This document shows positions 2-20,738 of a stretch of DNA of 64,000 nucleotides, in pieces. Source of the stretch: a virus. A program made the position numbers and the translations under genes. The first letter of the stretch is position 1, and the number at the start of each line of letters is the position of its first letter. The stretch is from positions 7,657 through 71,656 of IMG/VR virus record IMGVR_UViG_3300032315_000470; one strand, written 5' to 3'. Under the pieces are notes generated by a model. That model saw only the letters and a list, made by a program, of their open reading frames with translations, had not been told where the DNA came from and searched no databases.

Positions 2-1672
2 GGTACCAGTTTTACTGAAATTAATTTTCAAAGATCACCCAACACATTAATTATTGGCAACAATGGTGCAGGTAAATCCACCATTCTTGATGCATTGTGT
101 TTTGGTCTTTTTGGTAAACCATTTCGTAAGATAACCAAACCACAATTATTAAACTCCATCAACCAATCCGATTGTGTTGTGGAGATTGAATTTTCTATTG
201 GTAAAAAACAATACAAAGTAATTCGTGGTATCAAACCAAATGTGTTTGAGGTTTATCTTAATGATAAATTGCTTGACCAAGATGCTAAGGCAAAAGATTA
301 TCAGGAGTTCTTGGAAAAGTTTATTCTCAAGATTAACTATAAATCATTTACACAAGTAGTTATTCTTGGTTCGGCATCATTTGTTCCGTTCATGCAATTA
401 TCTCCGGCTGACCGCAGATTGATTATTGAAGATTTATTGGACATTGGTATTTTTTCCTCTATGAACGGAATTGTTAAAGAGAAGATGTCATCAATTAAAG
501 ATATCTCAACCAAAAACAAATATGAGATGGATCTATCTTCAGAAAGAATCAACTTCCAAAAACAAAGTATTGAAGATCATAAAAGTCGTTCTGATGAAGA
601 AATTACCAAGAAGCGTAAAGAGATTGCCGATTCGGTTGATCAAATCTTTACTTTAGAAAGAGATGTTGAACTAATTCAAAAACATATTGCCGTGTTGCAA
701 AGTAAGATTGCCGACCAAATGGCAGTTCAAAAGAAAAGTGCCAAGTTGATTCAACTAGAATCCAAGCTTGAATCTCGTATTAAGAAGATTGATAAAGAGG
801 TAACCTTCTATGAAGAACACTCCGATTGTCCAACTTGCAAACAAGGAATTGCGGAGTCTTTCCGAACCGAACAAGTTTCTGTTCTGAGTAACACTAAGTC
901 GGAAGTGTCTACTGCACTATCGGACATCTCCACTCAAATTACAGCAACGAATAAACGAATCGAAGAAATACAACACGGCCTTAAACACATTACGGCACAT
1001 AACAATGAAGTGGTCAAACACAACTCAACAATATCTGCCATCAATAAATTTGTTACAAAATTACAAAAAGAAGTAGAAGAACTCACCAATCACAAAGATA
1101 GTCTTGAAGAAGAAAATGCCAAGTTAAAAGAACTCAAAGAAGAACTTGGTGCATTAGTCAAAAAACAGGAAGAATTAGCAACAGAGAAACAGTATTATGA
1201 ATTTGCCGGTTTACTATTAAAAGATACTGGCATTAAAACTAGAATCATTCGTCAGTATTTACCTATTATGAATAAATTGATTAATAAGTATTTGACTGCC
1301 ATGGACTTCTTTGTAAACTTCAACATCAATGAAAACTTTGAAGAAACTATTAAGTCTAGGCACCGTGATGAGTTTTCATATGCCAACTTTTCTGAAGGTG
1401 AAAAGATGCGTATAGATTTGGCTCTATTGTTTACATGGCGACAAATTGCTAAGTTGAAGAACTCTACAAATACCAATTTATTAATTCTTGATGAGGTGTT
1501 TGATTCTTCTCTTGATGGAGTAGGCACAGAAGAATTTTTAAAGTTGATTCATGAGATGGGAACAGATACCAATGTGTTTGTTATCTCACACAAAGGTGAC
1601 CAGTTGTTTGATAAATTCCGGTCGATTATTAAATTTGAGAAGCATAACAATTTCAGTAGGATTGCAAAATGA
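2..1672 (+). CDS. gp46: Recombination endonuclease ATPase subunit (T4 gp46/SbcC-like), 5'-truncated by window edge
   Basis: Frame is open from position 2 with Walker A GNNGAGKST; CPTC zinc hook, coiled coil, FSEGE signature and LILDEVFD Walker B. Confidence 0.95.
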   Translation, partial: GTSFTEINFQRSPNTLIIGNNGAGKSTILDALCFGLFGKPFRKITKPQLLNSINQSDCVVEIEFSIGKKQYKVIRGIKPNVFEVYLNDKLLDQDAKAKDYQEFLEKFILKINYKSFTQVVILGSASFVPFMQLSPADRRLIIEDLLDIGIFSSMNGIVKEKMSSIKDISTKNKYEMDLSSERINFQKQSIEDHKSRSDEEITKKRKEIADSVDQIFTLERDVELIQKHIAVLQSKIADQMAVQKKSAKLIQLESKLESRIKKIDKEVTFYEEHSDCPTCKQGIAESFRTEQVSVLSNTKSEVSTALSDISTQITATNKRIEEIQHGLKHITAHNNEVVKHNSTISAINKFVTKLQKEVEELTNHKDSLEEENAKLKELKEELGALVKKQEELATEKQYYEFAGLLLKDTGIKTRIIRQYLPIMNKLINKYLTAMDFFVNFNINENFEETIKSRHRDEFSYANFSEGEKMRIDLALLFTWRQIAKLKNSTNTNLLILDEVFDSSLDGVGTEEFLKLIHEMGTDTNVFVISHKGDQLFDKFRSIIKFEKHNNFSRIAK

Positions 1673-2274
1673 GTGAAACAATTGTTTTTAATACAGAAGA
1701 AACATTAAAGGATAAAAATTATGTAACAACACATAATATTCCTTTATTTGATTTAGTACCAGATACCGATCCAATTCTCCGTCAGGTCTTACCTGAATTT
1801 GATTTTACAAATGCACCAGTTAATCCAATGGAGTTTGCCTCTTCATTGGTGGAAACTTGTAAGAAACATAATGGTTATGGATTATCTGCCAATCAATGTG
1901 GTTTTCCTTATCGTGTTTTTGTAATGGGTTCTGGTGATAATTATGTGGCATTTTTTAATCCCAGCATTGTATTGAAATCCCACAAAGAAGTTCATATGGC
2001 CGAAGGTTGTTTATCTTTTCCTTTATTGGCATTGAGTATCACACGACCAGAAGAAGTAGCGGTAACATACCAAGACTTTAATGGAGAGTGGAAACAGGCA
2101 ACCTTTAATGGTATATCTGCTCGTTGTTTTCAACATGAGCTTGACCATTTAAATGGAATAGTGTATACTAGTAAAGTAAAACCATTAGCACTACAAAGTG
2201 GATTAAAAAAACGAGATAAGATATTGAAGATGGTTAACAAGGTAAATAACAACTTGGCAAAGATTAAAAAATAA
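1669..2274 (+). CDS. def: Peptide deformylase
   Basis: GLSANQCG, EGCLS and QHELDHLNG motifs. Confidence 0.95.
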   Translation: MSETIVFNTEETLKDKNYVTTHNIPLFDLVPDTDPILRQVLPEFDFTNAPVNPMEFASSLVETCKKHNGYGLSANQCGFPYRVFVMGSGDNYVAFFNPSIVLKSHKEVHMAEGCLSFPLLALSITRPEEVAVTYQDFNGEWKQATFNGISARCFQHELDHLNGIVYTSKVKPLALQSGLKKRDKILKMVNKVNNNLAKIKK

Positions 2275-3539
2275 TGGCAACACCAATTGAATATGTAGAA
2301 AAACAATGGAATGATTGGCAAGAGAAAAATCCTGCCGATTCATTTCAACACATTGATGAAGCAAACATGAAAGAAGTCCTAATTAAAGACTTAACATACG
2401 CTTCTCAAATGGATGTTCGTGAATATACTCTATATCAAAAATGGTGTGAGGTGAAAGAACGGTATCCTGTCTTTGAAGCCAGTACTATATTTGGTACAGA
2501 GTTACAGATGGTTGATCCTGAGCAAGATAAACTCATTAAAGAAGTTAGAAAAAACTTTTGGGTGCCAGAATCTCCTGATGATTATGAAAAACTAAAACCG
2601 GTTATGGTATTATCTAATGGTGAAGATGCTGCTCGTTGGAATGCCATTCGTACATTCTCATCAACCATGAAGAACAACAGCAACATTGGTCGTAATCTAT
2701 TTTATGTTTTAACAGATGAAGTTACTGGTAAATATCTTGGTGTTATCTGCATCTCCTCAGACTTTCTGGACTTGACTCCGAGAGATAACGCCATCGGATG
2801 GTCGAGAGATGTTAAGACACAGCAACACATGATTAATCACACCGCAATTGGATCCACCATCGTTCCGTTACAACCACTAGGTTTTAATTACATGGGTGGT
2901 AAGTTATTGGCCTTGATGTGTTTATCTGATACGGTTCAGGCCGATTGGAAAAGACAATATGGAGACACTCTTGTTGGCGTTACTACAACGTCACTCTATG
3001 GAAAAACAAAGGCTGGAGGCCTCTCGCAGTATGATGGTCTTGAACATTGGAATCCTATGGGTTTTTCTTCTGGTTCTGTGGCTTTCGAACCATCGAGGTC
3101 AACCAAAAAAATAGTGTTTGATTGGATCAAAGAGAATCATACTCGTAAATACTTTGAATGGTGGGAGGCCAAGAATACACAAGGACTTCCACTCAAGCGT
3201 GACCATAAGAATCGTTCTTTAAACTTTGCATATTCTAAACTACAAATACCTAAAGAACTGATTCGCACCGAACATCAACGTGGTATCTATTTTAGTCCTC
3301 TCTATAATAATACCTTTGAATTTCTCCGTAAGGAGATTACTGATTCTGATCTGGTAAAGTCGTTTGATACCAGTGAAGAAGCCCTTGCCAATATTTGGAA
3401 AACCAAGTATGCTAAGGGACGAATTAGGCAATTACAGAAGAAGAATACCGTTTCTTACGAATCTTTATTCTATAATGACCTAATTTACTTGTCTTGGGAA
3501 GAAACCAAGGCAAAATATTTGCCACAAGTTGGCAGATAA
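2274..3539 (+). CDS. DUF4338/DruA-like (Mom-related GNAT fold) protein, paralog 1
   Basis: GRNLFY..D...GKYLGVI, RDNAIGW, PLGFNYMGGKLLA, TTTSLYG..SQYDG motifs resemble DUF4338/DruA. Confidence 0.6.
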   Translation: MATPIEYVEKQWNDWQEKNPADSFQHIDEANMKEVLIKDLTYASQMDVREYTLYQKWCEVKERYPVFEASTIFGTELQMVDPEQDKLIKEVRKNFWVPESPDDYEKLKPVMVLSNGEDAARWNAIRTFSSTMKNNSNIGRNLFYVLTDEVTGKYLGVICISSDFLDLTPRDNAIGWSRDVKTQQHMINHTAIGSTIVPLQPLGFNYMGGKLLALMCLSDTVQADWKRQYGDTLVGVTTTSLYGKTKAGGLSQYDGLEHWNPMGFSSGSVAFEPSRSTKKIVFDWIKENHTRKYFEWWEAKNTQGLPLKRDHKNRSLNFAYSKLQIPKELIRTEHQRGIYFSPLYNNTFEFLRKEITDSDLVKSFDTSEEALANIWKTKYAKGRIRQLQKKNTVSYESLFYNDLIYLSWEETKAKYLPQVGR

Positions 3540-11346: not shown

Positions 11347-11374
11347 TTGACATATTGTGTGGTTCGTGTATAAT
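11347..11374 (+). promoter_or_regulatory. Sigma70-like promoter for the tRNA cluster
   Basis: TTGACA-16 bp-TATAAT; similar promoters at 11716-11744 and 11925-11953 (17 bp spacers). Confidence 0.8.
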
Positions 11375-11387
11375 GATTTACTTAGAT

Positions 11388-11462
11388 GCACCTATCGTCT
11401 ATCGGTTAGGACACCGCCCTTTCACGGCGGGAAGAGGAGTTCGATTCTCCTTAGGTGTACCA
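11388..11462 (+). tRNA. tRNA-Glu(TTC)
   Basis: Cloverleaf; anticodon loop CTTTCAC; GTTCGATTC T arm; encoded CCA. Confidence 0.93.
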
Positions 11463-11477
11463 ATTTTTAGTTTCAAT

Positions 11478-11553
11478 TCCGGTCAAGCAAACACGGTGTA
11501 GGCGGAGGACTGTTAATCCTTGAAGCGTGGTTCGATTCCACGGACCGGAGCCA
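11478..11553 (+). tRNA. tRNA-Asn(GTT)
   Basis: Acceptor TCCGGTC/GACCGGA; loop CTGTTAA; CCA. Confidence 0.93.
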
Positions 11554-11573
11554 CTTTTTTAAAGGAGAGTATT

Positions 11574-11768
11574 ATGAAAAAGAAAACACCTCCTCAACCA
11601 CGAAACTATCTTGTCAAATTGGCATTGTTTCGTAAAGCAGGGAGTCATCGTAAAAGTAACAAAGCTTTAAGGCGTAACGACAAGGTAAAGATTAAGGATA
11701 AAATGTATCCTATTATTGACATTATAGTTAATAGTGTGTATAATAGGATACATTCTGTCCATAGTTAA
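11574..11768 (+). CDS. Small basic hypothetical protein within the tRNA cluster
   Basis: AAGGAG RBS; PRNYLVK..RKAGSHRKS motif; 3' end overlaps a promoter and tRNA-Arg. Confidence 0.5.
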   Translation: MKKKTPPQPRNYLVKLALFRKAGSHRKSNKALRRNDKVKIKDKMYPIIDIIVNSVYNRIHSVHS

Positions 11769-11829
11769 ATGGATATAACACAGACCTTCTAAGTCTGATT
11801 TCCAGGTTCGATTCCTGGTGGACGGACCA
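11755..11829 (+). tRNA. tRNA-Arg(TCT)
   Basis: CAGAC-CTTCTAA-GTCTG anticodon arm; GGTTCGATTCC; CCA. Confidence 0.92.
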
Positions 11830-11831
11830 AG

Positions 11832-11906
11832 GGGCCAATAGCTTAATGGTAAAGCGTCCGACTCATAATCGGTTGAGTAATAGTTCAATTCTATTTTGGC
11901 CCACCA
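11832..11906 (+). tRNA. tRNA with CAT anticodon, probably Ile2 (lysidine type) or elongator Met
   Basis: GGGCCAA/TTGGCCC acceptor; CGACTCATAATCG arm resembles bacterial tRNA-Ile2. Confidence 0.85.
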
Positions 11907-12021
11907 AGTATACCACAATATCTATTGACAATCATCATAGATAAGTATATAATTAGATTTACTGTTGTGAAACAGCAAAACTTCCGTCATTAAGTGACCC
12001 TGTAACCGGTAAGCAGGATAT

Positions 12022-12088
12022 GCGGTGTGTAATAGTACGATTTGAGATACCCTCTTGAATTATCTGAGCATAGCAGACCACCGCTCCA
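12022..12088 (+). ncRNA. Non-canonical tRNA-Gly-like RNA (ACC anticodon-like loop, UCCA end)
   Basis: Four-arm fold: GCGGTG/CACCGC, TGTA/TACG, ATTTGAG/CTTGAAT, TCTG/CAGA; lacks D-loop GG and the TTC T-loop. Confidence 0.6.
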
Positions 12089-12114
12089 AATTTTAGTTTA
12101 AAGGATAAAATATC

Positions 12115-12303
12115 ATGGCAGCCAAAGGTTCAAACCAAAAAACTCGTAAAGCAAATCCTATGTTGACCAAAACTGGTAAACCAAGATTAGGTCCTTTAAA
12201 TGTTGAGCAACTAACAAAATTGTTAGATGGTGCTCGCAAAAAACACAAAGCAAAAATTCAACGAGCAATTACAAGACGAACCCAACCACCAGTCGCAGTT
12301 TAA
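12115..12303 (+). CDS. Small basic hypothetical protein
   Basis: AAGGA RBS; Lys/Arg-rich 62 aa. Confidence 0.6.
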   Translation: MAAKGSNQKTRKANPMLTKTGKPRLGPLNVEQLTKLLDGARKKHKAKIQRAITRRTQPPVAV

Positions 12304-12308
12304 TATTG

Positions 12309-12382
12309 GCCCCTATAGTTAAACGGTATAACAGTTGATTTGTAATCATCAATTCGCAGTTCGATTCTGTGTGGGGGCACCA
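12309..12382 (+). tRNA. tRNA-Thr(TGT)
   Basis: GCCCCTA/TGGGGGC acceptor; loop TTTGTAA; CCA. Confidence 0.92.
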
Positions 12383-12516
12383 TGAAAAAAGTTGAAGTTG
12401 TTCCTGAAGCAAACACACCAACATCTAGCTGGGGTAGAACATTAACAAAACAAGAATTATTAGATTTACTGAATAGATTAGAAGCAAAGAAAAAAGCAAG
12501 AAAAGATAAAGATTAA
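12382..12516 (+). CDS. Putative 44-aa protein between tRNAs
   Basis: ATG shares the A of the tRNA-Thr CCA; open to TAA just before tRNA-Gly. Confidence 0.35.
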   Translation: MKKVEVVPEANTPTSSWGRTLTKQELLDLLNRLEAKKKARKDKD

Positions 12517-12517
12517 T

Positions 12518-12591
12518 GCGGGATTAGTTTAATGGTAAAACTAAAGGTTTCCAACCTTTCGTTGTCAGTTCGATTCTGTCATCCCGCTCCA
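12518..12591 (+). tRNA. tRNA-Gly(TCC)
   Basis: GCGGGAT/ATCCCGC acceptor with U73; loop TTTCCAA; CCA. Confidence 0.93.
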
Positions 12592-12624
12592 CAACGACTA
12601 CATACAATTTTATGAAAGTGAACT

Positions 12625-12882
12625 ATGAATATTAAACCATTAAAAGATAAGATTCTTGTTTCTAGAATTGCTGGAGAAAAACAAACTGAATTCGGCATCA
12701 TTCTTAAATCATCAGAAGGTCCAGATAAAGCTTTAGTTGAATCTATTGGTCCCAAAGTAGATGAAGTTTCTGTTGGTGATGAAGTTCTAATTAATTGGAA
12801 CGGCGCAGTGAAAGTTTCTGGTAAAGAAATCGAAAAAGAATTATACGTTGTTTCTATTGAACATGTAATTTTAGTTTACTAA
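12625..12882 (+). CDS. groES: GroES-like co-chaperonin
   Basis: IKPLKDKILV...GIIL...IGP...VSVGDEVL. Confidence 0.88.
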   Translation: MNIKPLKDKILVSRIAGEKQTEFGIILKSSEGPDKALVESIGPKVDEVSVGDEVLINWNGAVKVSGKEIEKELYVVSIEHVILVY

Positions 12883-12905
12883 TATTCAGGAAATACTTTT
12901 ACAAT

Positions 12906-12980
12906 CGCAGAGTAGCTCAGAGGTAGAGCATTGGACTCATAATCCAGGGGCCGGTGGTTCGATTCCATCCTCTGCAACCA
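12906..12980 (+). tRNA. tRNA-Met(CAT), initiator-like
   Basis: C1:A72 mismatch; loop CTCATAA; CCA. Confidence 0.88.
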
Positions 12981-13472: not shown

Positions 13473-16010
13473 TTGAGTTCATCATTCTATACCAATGTTC
13501 AATGCTTTGGTAGCAACATACTCTATCGAGGAATTCAAGATGGCAAAAGAGTAAAACAGAGAATTGAATATTCTCCTTCCCTTTTTCTACCCTCCAAACG
13601 AGTTACTAATTTCACCACACTTACTGGTGATTACCTAGACCAAAAAGTATTTGGTACAACTAAAGAGGCAAGAGATTACATCAAGCAATTCGATGGTGTG
13701 TCTGGTGCCTCTAAAGTCTATGGTCAAACACGATTTGAATATGCCTTTATTGCCGATCAACACCAAGGCATGGTTGACTATGACCAGGATAAAGTCTTAA
13801 TTGCTGTAATCGATATCGAGGTCGGCTCAGAAAATGGCTTTCCTGATCCATATGAAGCAAACGAACCTATCACAGCAATTGCAGTAAAATATCTTAATGG
13901 TAAAACTTATGTGTTTGGCTGTGGTGATTATGTTACGCAAGGCGAAGAGGTCTATGTAAAGTGCAAAGATGAATATTCCTTATGTAAACAATTCATGGCA
14001 CTATGGACAAAAGTGTGTCCCGATATTCTTACTGGTTGGAACACCAAGTTCTTTGATGTGCCGTACATCATCAATCGTTTTCGCAAAATTCTAGGTGAAG
14101 ATGAAACTAAAACCTTGTCTCCTTGGAAATATCTTACCGAAAGAAAAACTCGAATCAATGGTCGTGAGTTAATTGCTTATGACATTGTTGGTGTTGCAGC
14201 ACTTGATTATATTGAACTGTACAAATGGTATGCGCCAGGTGGTAAGTCACAAGAATCATATCGTTTAGATAACATTGCACAGGTTGAATTGGGTGAAGGT
14301 AAAATTGCATATGACGAATATGATAATCTACATGCTCTGTATCGTTTAAATTATCAAAAGTTTATTGAGTATAACATCAAAGACGTTGAGTTGATTGTTC
14401 GACTTGAAGAAAAATTGAAACTGTTGGAACTAGGTGTAACTCTGGCCTACGATACAAAATCCAACTACGAAGATATTTTTGCTCAAACTCGTATGTGGGA
14501 TGCAATGACTTATTCCTACTTGCGTGAGAAAAACATTATTGTTCCACCAAGAGAAGTAAAAGAAAAAGACGGAATGTTTGAAGGTGCATATGTTAAAACA
14601 CCAAAAACAGGATTACATGATTGGGTTGCCAGTTTCGATTTGAACTCACTCTATCCACATTTGATGATGCAATATAATATTTCTCCAGAAACTCTAATTG
14701 AACCTGAAGATTATACACAAGAGATGAGAAGTGTTTTGTCACAAGGCGTTTCTGTTGAGAAACTTCTGACTAAATCGGTCGACACTTCTAAATTAGAGAA
14801 TGTCACACTCACTCCAAACGGACAATTTTTCCGTACAGACATTCAAGGTTTCTTACCTAAAATGATGGAAGAAATGTATCAAGATAGAAGTAAGTTTAAG
14901 AAGATGATGTTGGCTGCAAAACAAGAATATGAAAATGAAACAGATGAATCAAAAAAATACGAAATCGAAAAACGAATCGCTAAGTATAACAATATTCAGC
15001 TCGCCAAAAAAGTTTCTCTTAACTCTGCTTACGGTGCTCTTGGTTCTCAATATTTTAGATTTTATGACCTAAGAATGGCTCTTGGCGTCACGACTGCTGG
15101 ACAATTAAGTATTCGTTGGATCGAAAATAAGATTAACCAATACATGAACAACTTATTAAAAACGGAAGAAGATTATGTTATCGCCTCTGACACAGATTCG
15201 ATTTATCTCCACCTTGGTGAACTTGTTAAGAAGGTGTATCCAAACCAGACTGATGTTAAACAAGTTATCGCCTTCATGGACAAGGTCTGTGAAGATAAGC
15301 TACAACCTTTTATTGACAAGAGTTATCAAGAGCTCGCTACGTATGTTCATGCTTATGACCAAAAAATGCAGATGAAACGAGAAGGCCTTTCCAATAAAGG
15401 TATCTGGACGGCCAAGAAACGTTACATTCTAAATGTATATAACAATGAAGGTGTGCAATACAACGAGCCACAGATGAAGGTGATGGGTCTGGAGATGATT
15501 AAATCGTCCACACCTTCTGCTATCCGTGAGAAGATGAAAGAAGCAATTCAATTAATGGTAAATGGATCACAAGAAGATATTCATAAGTTTATTGCAGACT
15601 TCAGAGCTGAATTCAAAACTTTGCCTGTAGAAGAAATATCTTTTCCTCGGGGATTAAATGGGCTAAATACTTATTCTGATACGGTACATCTTTATAAGAA
15701 AGGTACACCAATTCATGTTAAGGGTGCGATTATATACAATAACAATCTAAAACGATTGAATCTCACCAAAAAGTATCCACTCATACAAGAAGGCGAAAAG
15801 GTTAAATTTACTTATCTGAAAATGCCAAACCCGTTTAAAGATACTGTTATTTCTTATCCTTCTCGTTTACCTAAAGAATTTGAAATGCAACAATACATCG
15901 ATTATGATATGCAATTTGATAAAGCATTTCTCGAACCCATCAAAGTCATTTTAGATTGTATGAAGTGGTCAACAGAAAAAACTAGTTCAATAGAAGATTT
16001 CTTCTCATGA
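13473..16010 (+). CDS. gp43: Family B DNA polymerase
   Basis: DIEV exonuclease I, SFDLNSLYP, KVSLNSAYG and SDTDS motifs. Confidence 0.98.
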   Translation: MSSSFYTNVQCFGSNILYRGIQDGKRVKQRIEYSPSLFLPSKRVTNFTTLTGDYLDQKVFGTTKEARDYIKQFDGVSGASKVYGQTRFEYAFIADQHQGMVDYDQDKVLIAVIDIEVGSENGFPDPYEANEPITAIAVKYLNGKTYVFGCGDYVTQGEEVYVKCKDEYSLCKQFMALWTKVCPDILTGWNTKFFDVPYIINRFRKILGEDETKTLSPWKYLTERKTRINGRELIAYDIVGVAALDYIELYKWYAPGGKSQESYRLDNIAQVELGEGKIAYDEYDNLHALYRLNYQKFIEYNIKDVELIVRLEEKLKLLELGVTLAYDTKSNYEDIFAQTRMWDAMTYSYLREKNIIVPPREVKEKDGMFEGAYVKTPKTGLHDWVASFDLNSLYPHLMMQYNISPETLIEPEDYTQEMRSVLSQGVSVEKLLTKSVDTSKLENVTLTPNGQFFRTDIQGFLPKMMEEMYQDRSKFKKMMLAAKQEYENETDESKKYEIEKRIAKYNNIQLAKKVSLNSAYGALGSQYFRFYDLRMALGVTTAGQLSIRWIENKINQYMNNLLKTEEDYVIASDTDSIYLHLGELVKKVYPNQTDVKQVIAFMDKVCEDKLQPFIDKSYQELATYVHAYDQKMQMKREGLSNKGIWTAKKRYILNVYNNEGVQYNEPQMKVMGLEMIKSSTPSAIREKMKEAIQLMVNGSQEDIHKFIADFRAEFKTLPVEEISFPRGLNGLNTYSDTVHLYKKGTPIHVKGAIIYNNNLKRLNLTKKYPLIQEGEKVKFTYLKMPNPFKDTVISYPSRLPKEFEMQQYIDYDMQFDKAFLEPIKVILDCMKWSTEKTSSIEDFFS

Positions 16011-18281: not shown

Positions 18282-19632
18282 TGAAGAATTTCTGCGGAAA
18301 GTTTTACCATTTTTAAAGACGGAATATTTTAGTGATAGTGTAGAGAGAACTTTATTTAATGAGATTACATCGTTCACGGAAACTTATAATGCTGCGCCAT
18401 CGGTTGAAGCAATTGATATTGCCGTCAAAGAAAGGCGTAATCTCACGGATGACGAAGTTAAGAGATGTGAATCTTATCTTAAAGAAATCGAAGCTAATAG
18501 CCAAACAGAAACCAAGATTCAATGGCTTGTTGATAAAACAGAATCGTTTTGCCAAGAGAAGGCCATATACAATGCAGTATTGGGGTCTATTTCAATTCTC
18601 GATGGCAAAGACAAAACGAATGATAAAGGTGCGATTCCCAAGATATTATCGGATGCTTTGGCCATTTCTTTCGACAACTCCGTAGGGCATGATTACCTAG
18701 AAAACTCAGATGAACGATATGAATTTTACCATAGAAAAGAAGAACGAATACCCTTTGATTTGGAATATTTTAACAAAATTACAAAGGGAGGACTACCTAC
18801 CAAAACCCTTAATATTGCTCTTGCTGGTACTGGCGTTGGTAAATCTTTGTTTATGTGTCATGTTGCTGCCGGTGCTATGGTTCAAGGAAAAAATGTGTTA
18901 TATATTACACTTGAAATGGCTGAAGAAAAGATTGCTGAAAGAATAGATGCAAACTTATTGAATGTTTCACTTGATGATTTGATGGAACTACCTAAAGATT
19001 TATATGACAAGAAGGTTGCTCGTGTTCGTGAGAAATGTACCGGCAAACTTATCATTAAAGAATACCCAACCGCTTCAGCATCCGTAACACACTTCAGAAC
19101 ATTATTAAATGAACTCAACCTCAAAAGGTCTTTCGTACCTGACATTATCTTTATTGATTATCTTAATATCTGTTGTTCTTCTCGTATTAAGGCTGGTGCG
19201 AATATTAACTCTTACACTTACGTTAAGTCAATCGCAGAAGAACTTAGGGGCCTTGCGGTTGAACATAATGTTCCTATTGTATCTGCTACACAGACTACAA
19301 GGAGTGGATTTACATCGAGCGATCCTGGTTTGGAAGATACGAGTGAGTCATTCGGGTTACCTGCAACCGCCGACTTAATGTTTGCTTTGATTTCTTCAGA
19401 AGAACTGGAAGAACTTGGCCAAATTATGATCAAACAATTGAAGAATAGATATAATGATCCAACATTTCACAAACGATTCACTCTCGGGGTTGATAGAGCT
19501 AAAATGAAACTATATGATGTCGAACAATCCGCACAGACGGGTATTGCAGATGCTGGCCATGATAAACCATTAAACACGTTTGGTACAAGAGAAGAAAAAC
19601 AAAAGAAATCATTTAATGGATTTAAAGTATGA
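18241..19632 (+). CDS. gp41: Replicative helicase
   Basis: AGTGVGKS, LEMAEE, IDYLNI, SATQTTR, QLKNRY. Confidence 0.97.
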   Translation: MKLEQTILKTLIYNEEFLRKVLPFLKTEYFSDSVERTLFNEITSFTETYNAAPSVEAIDIAVKERRNLTDDEVKRCESYLKEIEANSQTETKIQWLVDKTESFCQEKAIYNAVLGSISILDGKDKTNDKGAIPKILSDALAISFDNSVGHDYLENSDERYEFYHRKEERIPFDLEYFNKITKGGLPTKTLNIALAGTGVGKSLFMCHVAAGAMVQGKNVLYITLEMAEEKIAERIDANLLNVSLDDLMELPKDLYDKKVARVREKCTGKLIIKEYPTASASVTHFRTLLNELNLKRSFVPDIIFIDYLNICCSSRIKAGANINSYTYVKSIAEELRGLAVEHNVPIVSATQTTRSGFTSSDPGLEDTSESFGLPATADLMFALISSEELEELGQIMIKQLKNRYNDPTFHKRFTLGVDRAKMKLYDVEQSAQTGIADAGHDKPLNTFGTREEKQKKSFNGFKV

Positions 19633-20738
19633 TAATCTCCAGAGATAATGGTTTGTATTGTGCTAAAGCCTTTCATGATTACTTTAGTAATATTGGAAGT
19701 ACCGAAGAATACATGCGAGATGAGAAGCTAAAGAATGTGGCTGATATGCCATCTTCCTTATTTCCAATTGAAGATGATTTGTTTTCTGATTTCTCGATGC
19801 ATCCAAAAGATATGGATATTGAAGTGTGTGAAATACCAAATGATGTTTGGGAACCATTACTGGCCATTACCAGTTCACATATTAATAAAGCACCAGTTGG
19901 TAAGAATATACAATTGGCAGTCAAGGAAAAGAACTCAGGAAAGATTCTAGGATTCATTCGTTTAGGTTCACCTGTCATCTATATGAAACCCCGTAATGAC
20001 TACCTAGGACAAGTTTGGATTCAAAATGAAGATACTGCCAAGAGGTTTAATACGGCTTGTGTTATGGGTTTCGTAATTGTATCATCTCAACCATTCGGTT
20101 TCAATTACTTGGGTGGTAAACTATTATCTGCCATTTGTACCAGTCACACCGTTAGAGAGATATGTAATAAAAAATATGGCATGAATATATGTTTATTTGA
20201 AACTACCAGTTTATACGGAAGTACCAAGTCGGTTTCACAGTATGATGGTATGAAACCTTATATTCGTTTTAAAGGTCTAACAGAATCGGATATTGTGCCA
20301 ATGATGCACGGACAAAGATACCACGATTTAAAGAACTATGTAGAGAATATTACTGGAGATTTGTTGGGTGGTGATACATCAACAACTAGTAGAAAACTTA
20401 GAACATTCACTAAGATTATTGCTCTCACCAAAGCTGCTTTAAAAGGAACACCTGAAGGAGAGGATTTCAACCTAACGATTGAGAATGCTAAAAAGTTGAC
20501 AGAAAAGAAACGATATTATATCTCTGATTATGGATTTAAGAATACTGTTGACTATATGAATTGTAAAACAGATAAACTTTTACCTGGTGAAAATTATGAG
20601 AAACATAATTTAGAAAACATTATTGCTTGGTGGAAACAGAAAGCAACCAATCGTTATGAATCTCTGAAGGTTGATGGCCGATTAAGAACTGAACTTGAAA
20701 TCTGGACATCAGGCAAAGAGATCCAGATTATCAGATAA
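19629..20738 (+). CDS. DUF4338/DruA-like (Mom-related) protein, paralog 2
   Basis: GKILGFIRLGSP...PRN, QPFGFNYLGGKLLS, ETTSLYG..SQYDG shared with 2274-3539. Confidence 0.6.
   Translation: MIISRDNGLYCAKAFHDYFSNIGSTEEYMRDEKLKNVADMPSSLFPIEDDLFSDFSMHPKDMDIEVCEIPNDVWEPLLAITSSHINKAPVGKNIQLAVKEKNSGKILGFIRLGSPVIYMKPRNDYLGQVWIQNEDTAKRFNTACVMGFVIVSSQPFGFNYLGGKLLSAICTSHTVREICNKKYGMNICLFETTSLYGSTKSVSQYDGMKPYIRFKGLTESDIVPMMHGQRYHDLKNYVENITGDLLGGDTSTTSRKLRTFTKIIALTKAALKGTPEGEDFNLTIENAKKLTEKKRYYISDYGFKNTVDYMNCKTDKLLPGENYEKHNLENIIAWWKQKATNRYESLKVDGRLRTELEIWTSGKEIQIIR

Follow-up and report, generated by a model that had tools for sequence, protein, structure and literature searches.

What might an RNA gene of 67 nucleotides (nt), with the cloverleaf and the glycine identity elements of a transfer RNA (tRNA) and a decoding loop of effectively five bases, be doing in the genome of a virus? 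The question is posed by positions 12022-12088 (plus strand) of the window, i.e., the 64,000-nt stretch of DNA analyzed herein, which corresponds to bases 7657-71656 of a 71.7-kilobase (kb) IMG/VR viral record (IMGVR_UViG_3300032315_000470) estimated to be 43% complete. The element, referred to below as the mini RNA, is evidently a miniaturized paralog of the tRNA-Gly of the phage that encodes it, and the function to which we would give an even chance is that of a private, non-decoding glycyl carrier for an enzyme of the DruA family (DUF4338, PF14236), two members of which (p421 and p369) are encoded in the same window.

The letters of the element and its minimum-free-energy (MFE) fold both agree with an earlier account of the sequence (hereafter the preliminary description), in which it was presented as a four-helix cloverleaf; an acceptor stem and a 3' NCCA are present, and the gene itself supplies the CCA, a trait that it has in common with the remaining tRNA genes of the cluster (Table 1). 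The MFE fold consists of the four helices at -16.6 kcal/mol (z = -2.05) and was equalled by 7 of 200 shuffles, which is suggestive but only modestly better than chance. The mini D arm of the preliminary description is real, although its fourth pair (U7.G18) fails in relatives with A at position 7, such that 3 base pairs (bp) are supported, and the loop that had been given as 7 nt long is effectively a 5-nt loop (N-N-C-C-N) on a stem of 8-9 bp, since the basal pair 32:38 is a Watson-Crick pair that covaries from A:U to G:C in relatives. The reported lack of a D-loop GG and of a T-loop TTC was confirmed, as was the likeness to the canonical tRNA-Gly(UCC) at 12518, with which the mini RNA has in common the first four acceptor pairs (5' side G1C2G3G4), U73, and the encoded CCA. 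ARAGORN calls seven tRNAs in the window and neither a tRNA nor a transfer-messenger RNA (tmRNA) at the mini RNA, and the Rfam tRNA family RF00005 left the element unmatched at its gathering score and, in a search of 11900-12320 (421 bases), at expectation values (E) up to 10. A tmRNA or two-piece tmRNA identity was ruled out on the grounds that ARAGORN makes no tmRNA call and that 3:70 is an invariant G-C rather than G3.U70.

Conservation was assessed in 80 related viral loci that were fetched using ORF62, a small open reading frame (ORF) at 12115-12303, as the handle. When 11955-12115 was compared with these loci by blastn, a sharp conserved block emerged (41 matches, 22 distinct sequences) that runs from about 4 nt 5' of G1 to a few nt 3' of the CCA and beyond which the flanks diverge. 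Within an alignment of 19 distinct copies (A1), 99.2% of the 380 pair cells are paired according to the named cloverleaf, and both sides have changed in 8 of the 20 pairs, with at least one such pair in every helix; the observed values were reached in 0 of 500 column shuffles for four of five measures and in 2 of 500 for the fifth. With the 3' partners slid by 1-3 columns as a control, at most 2 pairs were changed on both sides, and RNAalifold found the same helices in the alignment independently. Because compensatory change is present in all four stems, the mini RNA is a real, conserved, structured RNA gene and no decaying pseudogene; the preliminary description had argued against decay from the intactness of the stems, and the compensatory changes in 19 homologs carry that argument considerably further.

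The covariance search of phage genomes that the preliminary description had proposed was run with a model (R1) built from type A, the form represented in the window, and returned a conserved family. Over the window and the 80 loci, R1 produced 38 strong matches (64-97 bits) and approximately 30 weaker ones (25-36 bits) at the same genomic position. The weaker group, type B, is 70 nt long and has an acceptor stem of 7 positions that is mismatched at 6:67, an AUAG D loop, a 7-bp distal stem whose loop differs from that of the real tRNA-Gly by a G at position 33 alone, and a T loop that starts with UGC; ARAGORN and RF00005 were both negative for it. Two pattern scans of IMG/VR yielded at least 119 and at least 120 contigs, and the pooled IMG/VR loci hold at least 85 distinct members of 66-70 nt in at least 181 occurrences, together with additional forms of 63-65 nt that have 4-nt loops such as CCCA or CCCC. 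A looser pattern coupled with a check of acceptor pairing gave 123 distinct candidates of up to 70 nt (including about 10 that resemble chance matches in GC-rich coding DNA), 89 of which fold by MFE as three-hairpin cloverleaves; CC occupies the middle loop in all 89, and these loops measure 3-6 nt, nearly all of them 4 or 5. The RNA persists among few tRNAs, as records G002 and G004 each have 3 canonical tRNAs in addition to it and loci L025 and L029 each have one. Rfam 15 contains no family for the mini RNA, and neither a phage mini tRNA-Gly nor a link between DruA and tRNA was found described in a keyword search of the open-access literature, which is not proof of absence from print.

Beyond viruses, a narrow, family-specific pattern applied to bacterial and archaeal genomes (one per species) returned 102 stretches, among which no mini form was recognized by eye. 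Five of the 102 are tRNA-Gly genes of approximately 74 nt with a UGC T loop, namely those at L204, L247, L262, and L266, from metagenome-assembled genomes of the candidate phyla radiation, and the one at L301; the four from the candidate phyla radiation likewise have a D loop without GG and resemble the staphylococcal non-proteogenic type. Other phage contigs also carry full-size tRNA-Gly genes (74-77 nt) that combine normal anticodon loops with non-TTC T loops (such as AGCG, ATCG, or AGCA) and D loops without GG (L097:4673-4746(-), L108:1262-1336, L196:1666-1740(-), L128:706-780, L155:2837-2911(-), and L347:1522-1598), and it is possible that these are intermediate or parallel non-proteogenic forms.

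Across the subtypes, little or no variation is seen at G1, C2, and G3, in most cases at G4, at the bases that pair with these, at U73, or in the encoded CCA, and the AUAG D loop, a G-C in the T loop, and the CC at the tip of the distal arm are likewise kept; in A1, G1, C2, G3, G4, the CC, U73, and the CCA are all invariant. The determinants of bacterial glycyl-tRNA synthetase (GlyRS) are G1-C72, C2-G71, U73, C35, and C36 (PMC9976931, excerpts). This identity set, to which the preliminary description had already drawn attention in the single copy, is invariant in A1 and kept in type B and in the 63-nt forms, i.e., across divergent subtypes. The decoding side has fared differently: any of the four bases may stand at position 33, C predominates at position 37 in type A, and position 34 is A, U, or G, which results in a nominal anticodon of ACC, UCC, or GCC in loops whose length varies between subtypes. 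The emphasis that had been placed on the ACC anticodon was misplaced in this light, as position 34 varies, loop length is not fixed, and only the CC matters. The T loop starts with A/U-G-C, being AGC in the window copy and UGC in type B and some type A members. Comparison of the copies shows, at the level of sequence, that the GlyRS identity set has been selectively retained and features for decoding lost, and if one molecule is to read the CC and the CCA end together, GlyRS would be the simplest candidate. Shortening of the D stem is offset by extra length in the distal stem, an arrangement that would preserve the distance from the CC to the CCA end.

The placement of the RNA is informative as to its origin. 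Among 91 distinct downstream contexts, taken from loci found by DNA pattern alone and each offering at least 250 nt of downstream sequence, an ORF62 homolog follows the mini RNA in 34, and in 23 of the remaining 57 (counted by eye) a canonical tRNA-Gly(UCC) starts 3-10 nt after the CCA; a GroES-like gene, another mini-tRNA, or other genes are found elsewhere. R1 weakly matches real tRNA-Gly, with 23.1 bits at L008 and L009 and 13.6 bits for the tRNA-Gly of T4. Together, the shared acceptor pairs, U73, and CCA and the tandem placement point to a tandem duplication of a phage tRNA-Gly followed by reduction, with the tRNA-Gly(UCC) as the likely parent.

A candidate recipient of the glycine emerged from the genes that accompany the RNA. 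The paralogs p421 and p369 share 35% identity over 140 residues (E 8e-26), and p369 directly follows a gene for a DnaB-like helicase. PF14236 is present in two copies in all four RNA-bearing records of an initial comparison and absent from one RNA-less record (36% complete), and two copies were also found in all three of the further RNA-bearing records (G005, G008, and G009); both paralogs are therewith present in all seven large RNA-bearing records (G000, G001, G002, G004, G005, G008, and G009). Two records were left out of the latter three because their matches are of another kind: that of L358 (record G007, one DruA-family gene) is a chance match in coding sequence, and that of L347 (record G006, 223 kb, no DruA-family gene) is one of the full-size odd tRNA-Gly genes described above. 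In 14 loci centered on the RNA, the p421 homolog ends 22-131 nt upstream of the mini RNA on the same strand. An unbiased test of linkage was afforded by 80 loci fetched by means of the enzyme alone, of which 46 hold distant homologs (up to 67% identity); after two with less than 100 nt of downstream sequence had been dropped, 44 were informative, and in 26 of these a mini-tRNA of 63-70 nt starts 6-65 nt after the stop codon of the enzyme gene, with 2 more within 1 kb. R1 at its default filters had given 9 matches on the 80 enzyme loci, and it was the looser pattern that recovered the 63-70-nt forms. Among the close homologs, three loci include the mini RNA within the fetched DNA, 6.6-7.2 kb downstream of the enzyme gene in an arrangement like that of the window, and in the other long loci checked the tRNA cluster extends beyond the end of the fetched DNA. 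By gene order and co-occurrence, then, the genomic coupling of the mini RNA to a DruA-family gene is strong without being obligate. The proposal in the preliminary description that the RNA may be a glycine donor for a transferase gains genomic support from a GNAT-like DruA-family gene that co-occurs with it, in many relatives directly upstream.

The description of p421 as GNAT-like derives from structure prediction. At E up to 1e-5 the family of p421 comprises 3589 proteins, and at E up to 1e-3 it has 886 cluster representatives; an AlphaFold2 model made from a 50-sequence alignment attained a predicted local distance difference test score (pLDDT) of 94.2 and a predicted template modeling score of 0.90. 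Foldseek matches of the full model to the PDB are dominated by GNAT-fold acyltransferases, with NAT10/Kre33 at rank 1 (E 6.4e-3) and a tandem GNAT and TmcA, the tRNA-Met cytidine acetyltransferase (probability 0.93), also on the list, while a domain-only model again found GNATs (E of 0.059 or more), including the aminoacyl-tRNA-dependent MprF. A GNAT-like core in p421 is thus a reasonable, if statistically weak, prediction, and to call the protein Mom-like beyond the fold class is not supported by the models. No useful match came from searching the PDB with the p369 sequence, and an Atlas lead to PF22559 scored 0.83, below the threshold of 0.9. Similar uncharacterized viral proteins are present in BFVD (best E 8e-20), and predicted structures from giant viruses (Faunusvirus, Yasminevirus, and Dasosvirus) match the p421 model with E of 8e-20 to 4e-9.

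Assembled into a sequence of events, the glycyl-carrier reading begins with transcription of the mini RNA from a strong host-type promoter, which the promoter geometry of its relatives makes probable. Among 98 distinct upstream contexts, 75 contain a sigma-70-like promoter that agrees at 10 or more of 12 positions, and 62 of these promoters have a -10 hexamer that stops 8-9 nt short of G1; transcription would in that case start at about -2 to +1, which would account for the conserved AT before G1 and make the mini RNA the first product of a dedicated promoter. The window copy belongs to a minority class in which a perfect promoter lies 68 nt upstream of G1 (the spacer of the class being approximately 68-79 nt). 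The transcript would fold into the tRNA-like cloverleaf that is evident from covariation and, given that the identity set is kept (G1-C72, C2-G71, G3-C70, U73, the CCA, and the distal CC), would probably be charged with glycine. It would probably remain outside translation, as suggested by a loop of 4-5 nt closed by a Watson-Crick pair, by the lack of a fixed U33, by a pyrimidine at position 37, and by the lack of a T-loop TTC and a D-loop GG. The most likely user of the charged RNA, judging from linkage, would be p421 and perhaps p369, with glycine passing from the mini RNA via the DruA-family protein to some acceptor molecule. A fuller version of this proposal, in which freshwater relatives of the SAR11 T4-like phages possess a two-part tRNA-dependent modification system composed of a private glycyl-carrier RNA, pared down to what GlyRS and the enzyme require, and a DruA-family, GNAT-like aminoacyl transferase, is put forward tentatively, as we think it rather less probable than the carrier role as such. 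The target of such a system might be phage DNA, in view of the position of p369 in the replication module and of the Mom precedent discussed below, or it might be protein N-termini, in view of the peptide deformylase gene that abuts p421 both here and in the Pelagibacter phage Mosig.

Several observations weigh against the glycyl-carrier reading and its partner enzyme. Of the 44 informative distant-homolog loci, 16 have no mini RNA in the fetched DNA, and the Pelagibacter phages Mosig and HTVC008M carry the enzyme gene, with R1 matching nothing in either whole genome; on the window, 8.5 kb separate the p421 gene from the mini RNA, which lies on the same strand. Relatives of the locus are present as contigs in two lake-water RNA libraries of one study, where they cover 12019-12091/95, but these contigs cover the conserved block only, do not resolve ends, strand, or transcription, and may reflect DNA carry-over. 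As to the enzyme, the domain-only model is of low confidence (pLDDT 64.9), neither model has a PDB match at E 0.001 or better, and Mom (8bv8) and FemX are absent from the 50 ranks listed in either Foldseek search. The Mom family PF25680, searched at E up to 1, was found in 0 of 5 records (G000 plus four large ones related to it), the Fem families PF02388 and PF13480 were each found in 0 of 5 (the complete G001 included), and hhalign gave a probability of 1.5% for the DruA-family profile against Mu Mom; a partner enzyme of the Fem or Mom family was rejected on these results. The conserved bases, moreover, could be read by the phage enzyme instead of GlyRS, and the top fold matches include RNA-modifying GNATs, which fits a model in which the RNA is the substrate.

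The last point leads to an alternative in which the mini RNA serves the DruA-family enzyme as substrate, cofactor, or guide, with no part played by glycine: a cytidine of the conserved CC could be acylated by the GNAT-like domain, much as TmcA and NAT10 acetylate C34 or rRNA, or the RNA could scaffold the enzyme. The gene-RNA linkage, the presence of NAT10/Kre33 and TmcA among the top PDB fold matches, and the fact that nothing in the distal loop is conserved besides the CC all suit this explanation; we nevertheless find it doubtful, because every fold match is weak, p421 is devoid of a TmcA-like helicase/ATPase module, and the preservation of the GlyRS set and of the encoded CCA across otherwise divergent subtypes would go unexplained. 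A decoy or sponge, which the preliminary description had offered as a second role and which received no specific support from the analysis, is unlikely as well, if slightly less so. An abundant early RNA, charged or not, would here absorb a host defense aimed at the acceptor end of tRNA-Gly and thereby shield the tRNA-Gly used in translation, the candidates being nucleases, GNAT toxins (acetylation of Gly-tRNAGly), and toxSAS enzymes (pyrophosphorylation of the CCA end). Early, high expression is suggested by the strong host-type promoter and the nearly leaderless RNA; a toxin of this kind would have free access to an RNA that is kept away from EF-Tu, and the mini RNA has been kept where hardly any other tRNA is found. 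U73 and G71, both invariant, constitute the identity set of TacT (PMC9976931, excerpts), and the invariant G1-C72, C2-G71, and G4-C69 amount to three of the four determinants of FaRel2 (bioRxiv 10.1101/2024.07.05.602228, excerpts), although the fourth, a purine-pyrimidine 5:68, is U-A in most A1 members. Against a decoy, no defense or toxin gene is tied to the mini RNA here, a catalytic toxin is hard to titrate with substrate, and the tight linkage to a DruA-family gene finds no explanation; the distal CC would be needless if the decoy were read via its acceptor end only, and the type A loops are unlike the natural tRNA-Gly anticodon loops that an anticodon nuclease would cut.

That the mini RNA is an odd-shaped tRNA-Gly that still translates, maybe reshaped to escape host defenses that target tRNAs, is improbable. 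Type B offers the best case, since its 7-nt loop reads UCC with A37 and A38 and no other Gly-type tRNA was seen in such phages as G002 and G004, and altered anticodon loops in phage tRNAs have been proposed as a means to evade nucleases (PMC10264068, excerpts). For the family as a whole, the unconstrained position 33, the variable position 34, and the predominant C37 of type A argue otherwise, as do the covarying 32:38 pair, loops of 3-6 nt (4 nt in the 63-nt forms), and the absence of the D-loop GG and T-loop TTC; the window, furthermore, already has a canonical tRNA-Gly(UCC). Very improbable is a purely cis-acting 5' element, i.e., an RNase P/Z processing signal or a stabilizer for the downstream ORF62 or tRNA-Gly message that would have no function in trans. 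The mini RNA does stand at the very 5' end of its transcription unit, and ORF62 or other genes follow it without a predicted terminator, but its downstream neighbors differ from locus to locus (see the 91 contexts above), a processing signal would not need the distal CC, U73, or the D- and T-loop motifs, and the linkage to the enzyme gene would again be left unaccounted for.

Coordinates of the features discussed are collected in Table 1.

Table 1. Features of the mini RNA locus and of the accompanying genes (positions are those of the window).
Feature	Position	Strand	Evidence or remark
Mini tRNA-Gly-like RNA gene, 67 nt, type A	12022-12088	+	Covariation, fold, model R1 95.9 bits
Acceptor stem of mini RNA, 6 bp	12022-12027 with 12079-12084	+	
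D arm of mini RNA, 3 bp	12029-12031 with 12036-12038	+	Loop AUAG, 12032-12035
Long distal (anticodon-like) arm of mini RNA	12040-12047 with 12053-12060	+	Loop UACCC, 12048-12052; conserved CC, 12050-12051
T-like arm of mini RNA, 4 bp	12063-12066 with 12074-12077	+	Loop AGCAUAG, 12067-12073
U73 of mini RNA	12085	+	
Encoded CCA of mini RNA	12086-12088	+	
Sigma-70-type promoter (TTGACA, 17 nt, TATAAT)	11925-11953	+	12 of 12 match
Presumed leader, about 62 nt	11960-12021	+	Start placed by promoter geometry; conserved in closest relatives only
Small basic ORF (ORF62), 62 amino acids	12115-12303	+	Often 3' of mini RNA; no known family
Canonical tRNA-Gly(UCC), 74 nt	12518-12591	+	ARAGORN; RF00005 64.2 bits; likely evolutionary parent of mini RNA
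Peptide deformylase gene	1669-2274	+	Abuts p421; PF01327 127.8 bits; context only
p421, DruA-family (DUF4338), GNAT-like core (predicted)	2274-3539	+	PF14236 74.3 bits (cut-off 27); PADLOC DruA 57.8 bits
p369, p421 paralog, DruA-family core	19629-20738	+	PF14236 35.6 bits; PADLOC DruA 27.4 bits; phrog_19197 438 bits

The phage in which this locus resides is evidently an uncultured T4-like myovirus related to SAR11 phages, as deduced from a family-B DNA polymerase (13473-16010), the top cultured matches of which are cyanomyoviruses at approximately 51% identity, and from p421, which shares 58% and 55% identity with proteins of Mosig and HTVC008M, respectively. A 'distant' blastn search with 11900-12320 found no close DNA relatives among cultured phages. 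The tRNA cluster spans 11388-12980 and comprises seven tRNAs according to ARAGORN and Rfam alike, with short ORFs between the tRNA genes. ORF62, which has no Pfam or PHROG family match, has 134 related stretches in viral contigs; members of its family are very basic and located inside the tRNA clusters of these phages, and they also occur without a mini RNA (L040, L041, and L072) and in some phages sit after tRNA-Asn. In two tRNA-rich relatives, ARAGORN reports a 93-nt 'tRNA-Pyl' with anticodon CUA (L040:656-748 and L041:657-749), which may be a tRNA of the amber-suppressor type; the record behind L041 has 32 RF00005 matches.

Perfect 12-of-12 promoters are located at 11347-11374, 11716-11744, and 11925-11953, all within 600 bases of the tRNA cluster, and promoter-like sites overall do not exceed the shuffled expectation (13 vs 10.7). 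Within the long-spacer minority, members including L011, L317, L359, and L398 share a motif near the 3' end of the spacer and a small hairpin, and a 9-base word of the long spacer also occurs, by eye, in T4 rnaD. A search of sequencing runs returned 5 runs with a word share of 0.05-0.06 each, and the matches in the four that were compared are all contigs. One further record, 163 nt long and from a wetland, spans 11938-12064 with adapters at both ends and starts upstream of the presumed transcription start; like the lake-water contigs, it does not resolve RNA ends, strand, or transcription and may reflect DNA carry-over.

Upstream of p421, the order of deformylase and DUF4338 genes in the window and in Mosig (stretches compared: window 1669-3539; L407:1885-3769; L408:1948-3631) hints at a connection to protein N-terminal processing or at mere conservation of gene order. 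The gene that precedes the DUF4338 gene in Mosig is annotated as a putative peptide deformylase, and a 528-nt gene annotated as hypothetical holds that position in HTVC008M. In their intergenic DNA, the two Pelagibacter phages also have in common a short conserved stretch and a hairpin (L407:4160-4215 and L408:3640-3680), which in HTVC008M come after the DUF4338 gene and in Mosig after the MazG-domain gene next to it; this DNA contains neither a CCA-ending cloverleaf nor an R1 match.

Were the glycyl-carrier reading correct, its consequences would reach beyond a single phage. A testable function would be attached to DUF4338/DruA, and the first biochemical clue to the DruA of Druantia defense would be that of a tRNA-dependent transferase. 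Viruses would be seen to build private aminoacyl carriers that are insulated from translation, tRNA finders would be missing a class of tRNA-derived genes, and a minimal RNA that GlyRS may still charge would have been defined.

Comparison with known systems places the mini RNA between several precedents. Like the mini RNA, rnaC and rnaD of T4 (species 1 and 2) are small stable RNAs encoded within a phage tRNA cluster; they measure 119-139 nt, as opposed to 67 nt, and we know of no function for them. Homology was rejected, as R1 with filters off matches the tRNA-Gly alone in the T4 tRNA region, at 13.6 bits; a few short words are, by eye, common to the mini RNA locus and rnaD. The 'bizarre' tRNAs of mitochondria, which have reduced D arms and lengthened anticodon stems and decode on specialized ribosomes with 7-nt anticodon loops, parallel the mini RNA in the shortened D arm and the longer anticodon-side helix, and differ from it in the 7-nt loop, which the mini RNA has not kept. 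DruA (DUF4338, PF14236) is a component of type I Druantia anti-phage systems. Both p421 and p369 match PF14236 and the PADLOC DruA model, yet they are phage genes rather than members of a bacterial DruABCDE operon, the neighbors seen being the peptide deformylase and DnaB-like helicase genes (DruB-E were not searched for). A term search of a Druantia paper found no mention of GNAT, Mom, or acetyltransferase, and no biochemical function assigned to DruA was seen there.

The closest counterparts of the RNA itself are the non-proteogenic tRNA-Gly species of staphylococci (NP1-NP3 of S. aureus and Ia/Ib of S. epidermidis, donors for FmhB, FemA, and FemB), in which TGC or TGT replaces TTC in the T loop, binding to EF-Tu and the ribosome is poor, and FmhB prefers them; dedicated non-ribosomal tRNA-Gly has so far been detected only in these two species (PMC7826273, excerpts). 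These are likewise tRNA-Gly paralogs with altered D and T loops that are charged by GlyRS, act outside translation, and feed a GNAT-fold aminoacyl transferase, as is proposed for the mini RNA, and their T-loop triplet is the UGC of type B, from which the AGC of the window copy differs. They are, however, full-size cellular tRNAs with 7-nt anticodon loops that are detectable as tRNAs, whereas the mini RNA is phage-encoded, 63-70 nt in length, and built with a 3-bp D stem, an 8-9-bp distal stem, and a 4-5-nt loop, and the Fem-family gene that partners the staphylococcal RNAs is absent from the five records examined. The best precedent for a phage in want of glycyl-tRNA is Mom of phage Mu, a GNAT by which glycine is transferred from Gly-tRNAGly onto the N6 position of adenine in duplex DNA (Silva et al., Nat Commun, April 2026, PMC13219725, excerpts), i.e., a phage GNAT-fold enzyme that takes glycine from a charged tRNA-Gly for a non-ribosomal reaction. 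Mom draws on host tRNA-Gly, and p421 falls outside its family; a term search of the main text of the Mom paper found no mention of 'encoded tRNA' or DruA. Set beside these systems, the locus described herein may, with about as much in favor as against, represent a new member of the dedicated non-ribosomal tRNA-Gly donors that would be phage-encoded, miniaturized, and paired with a different enzyme family.

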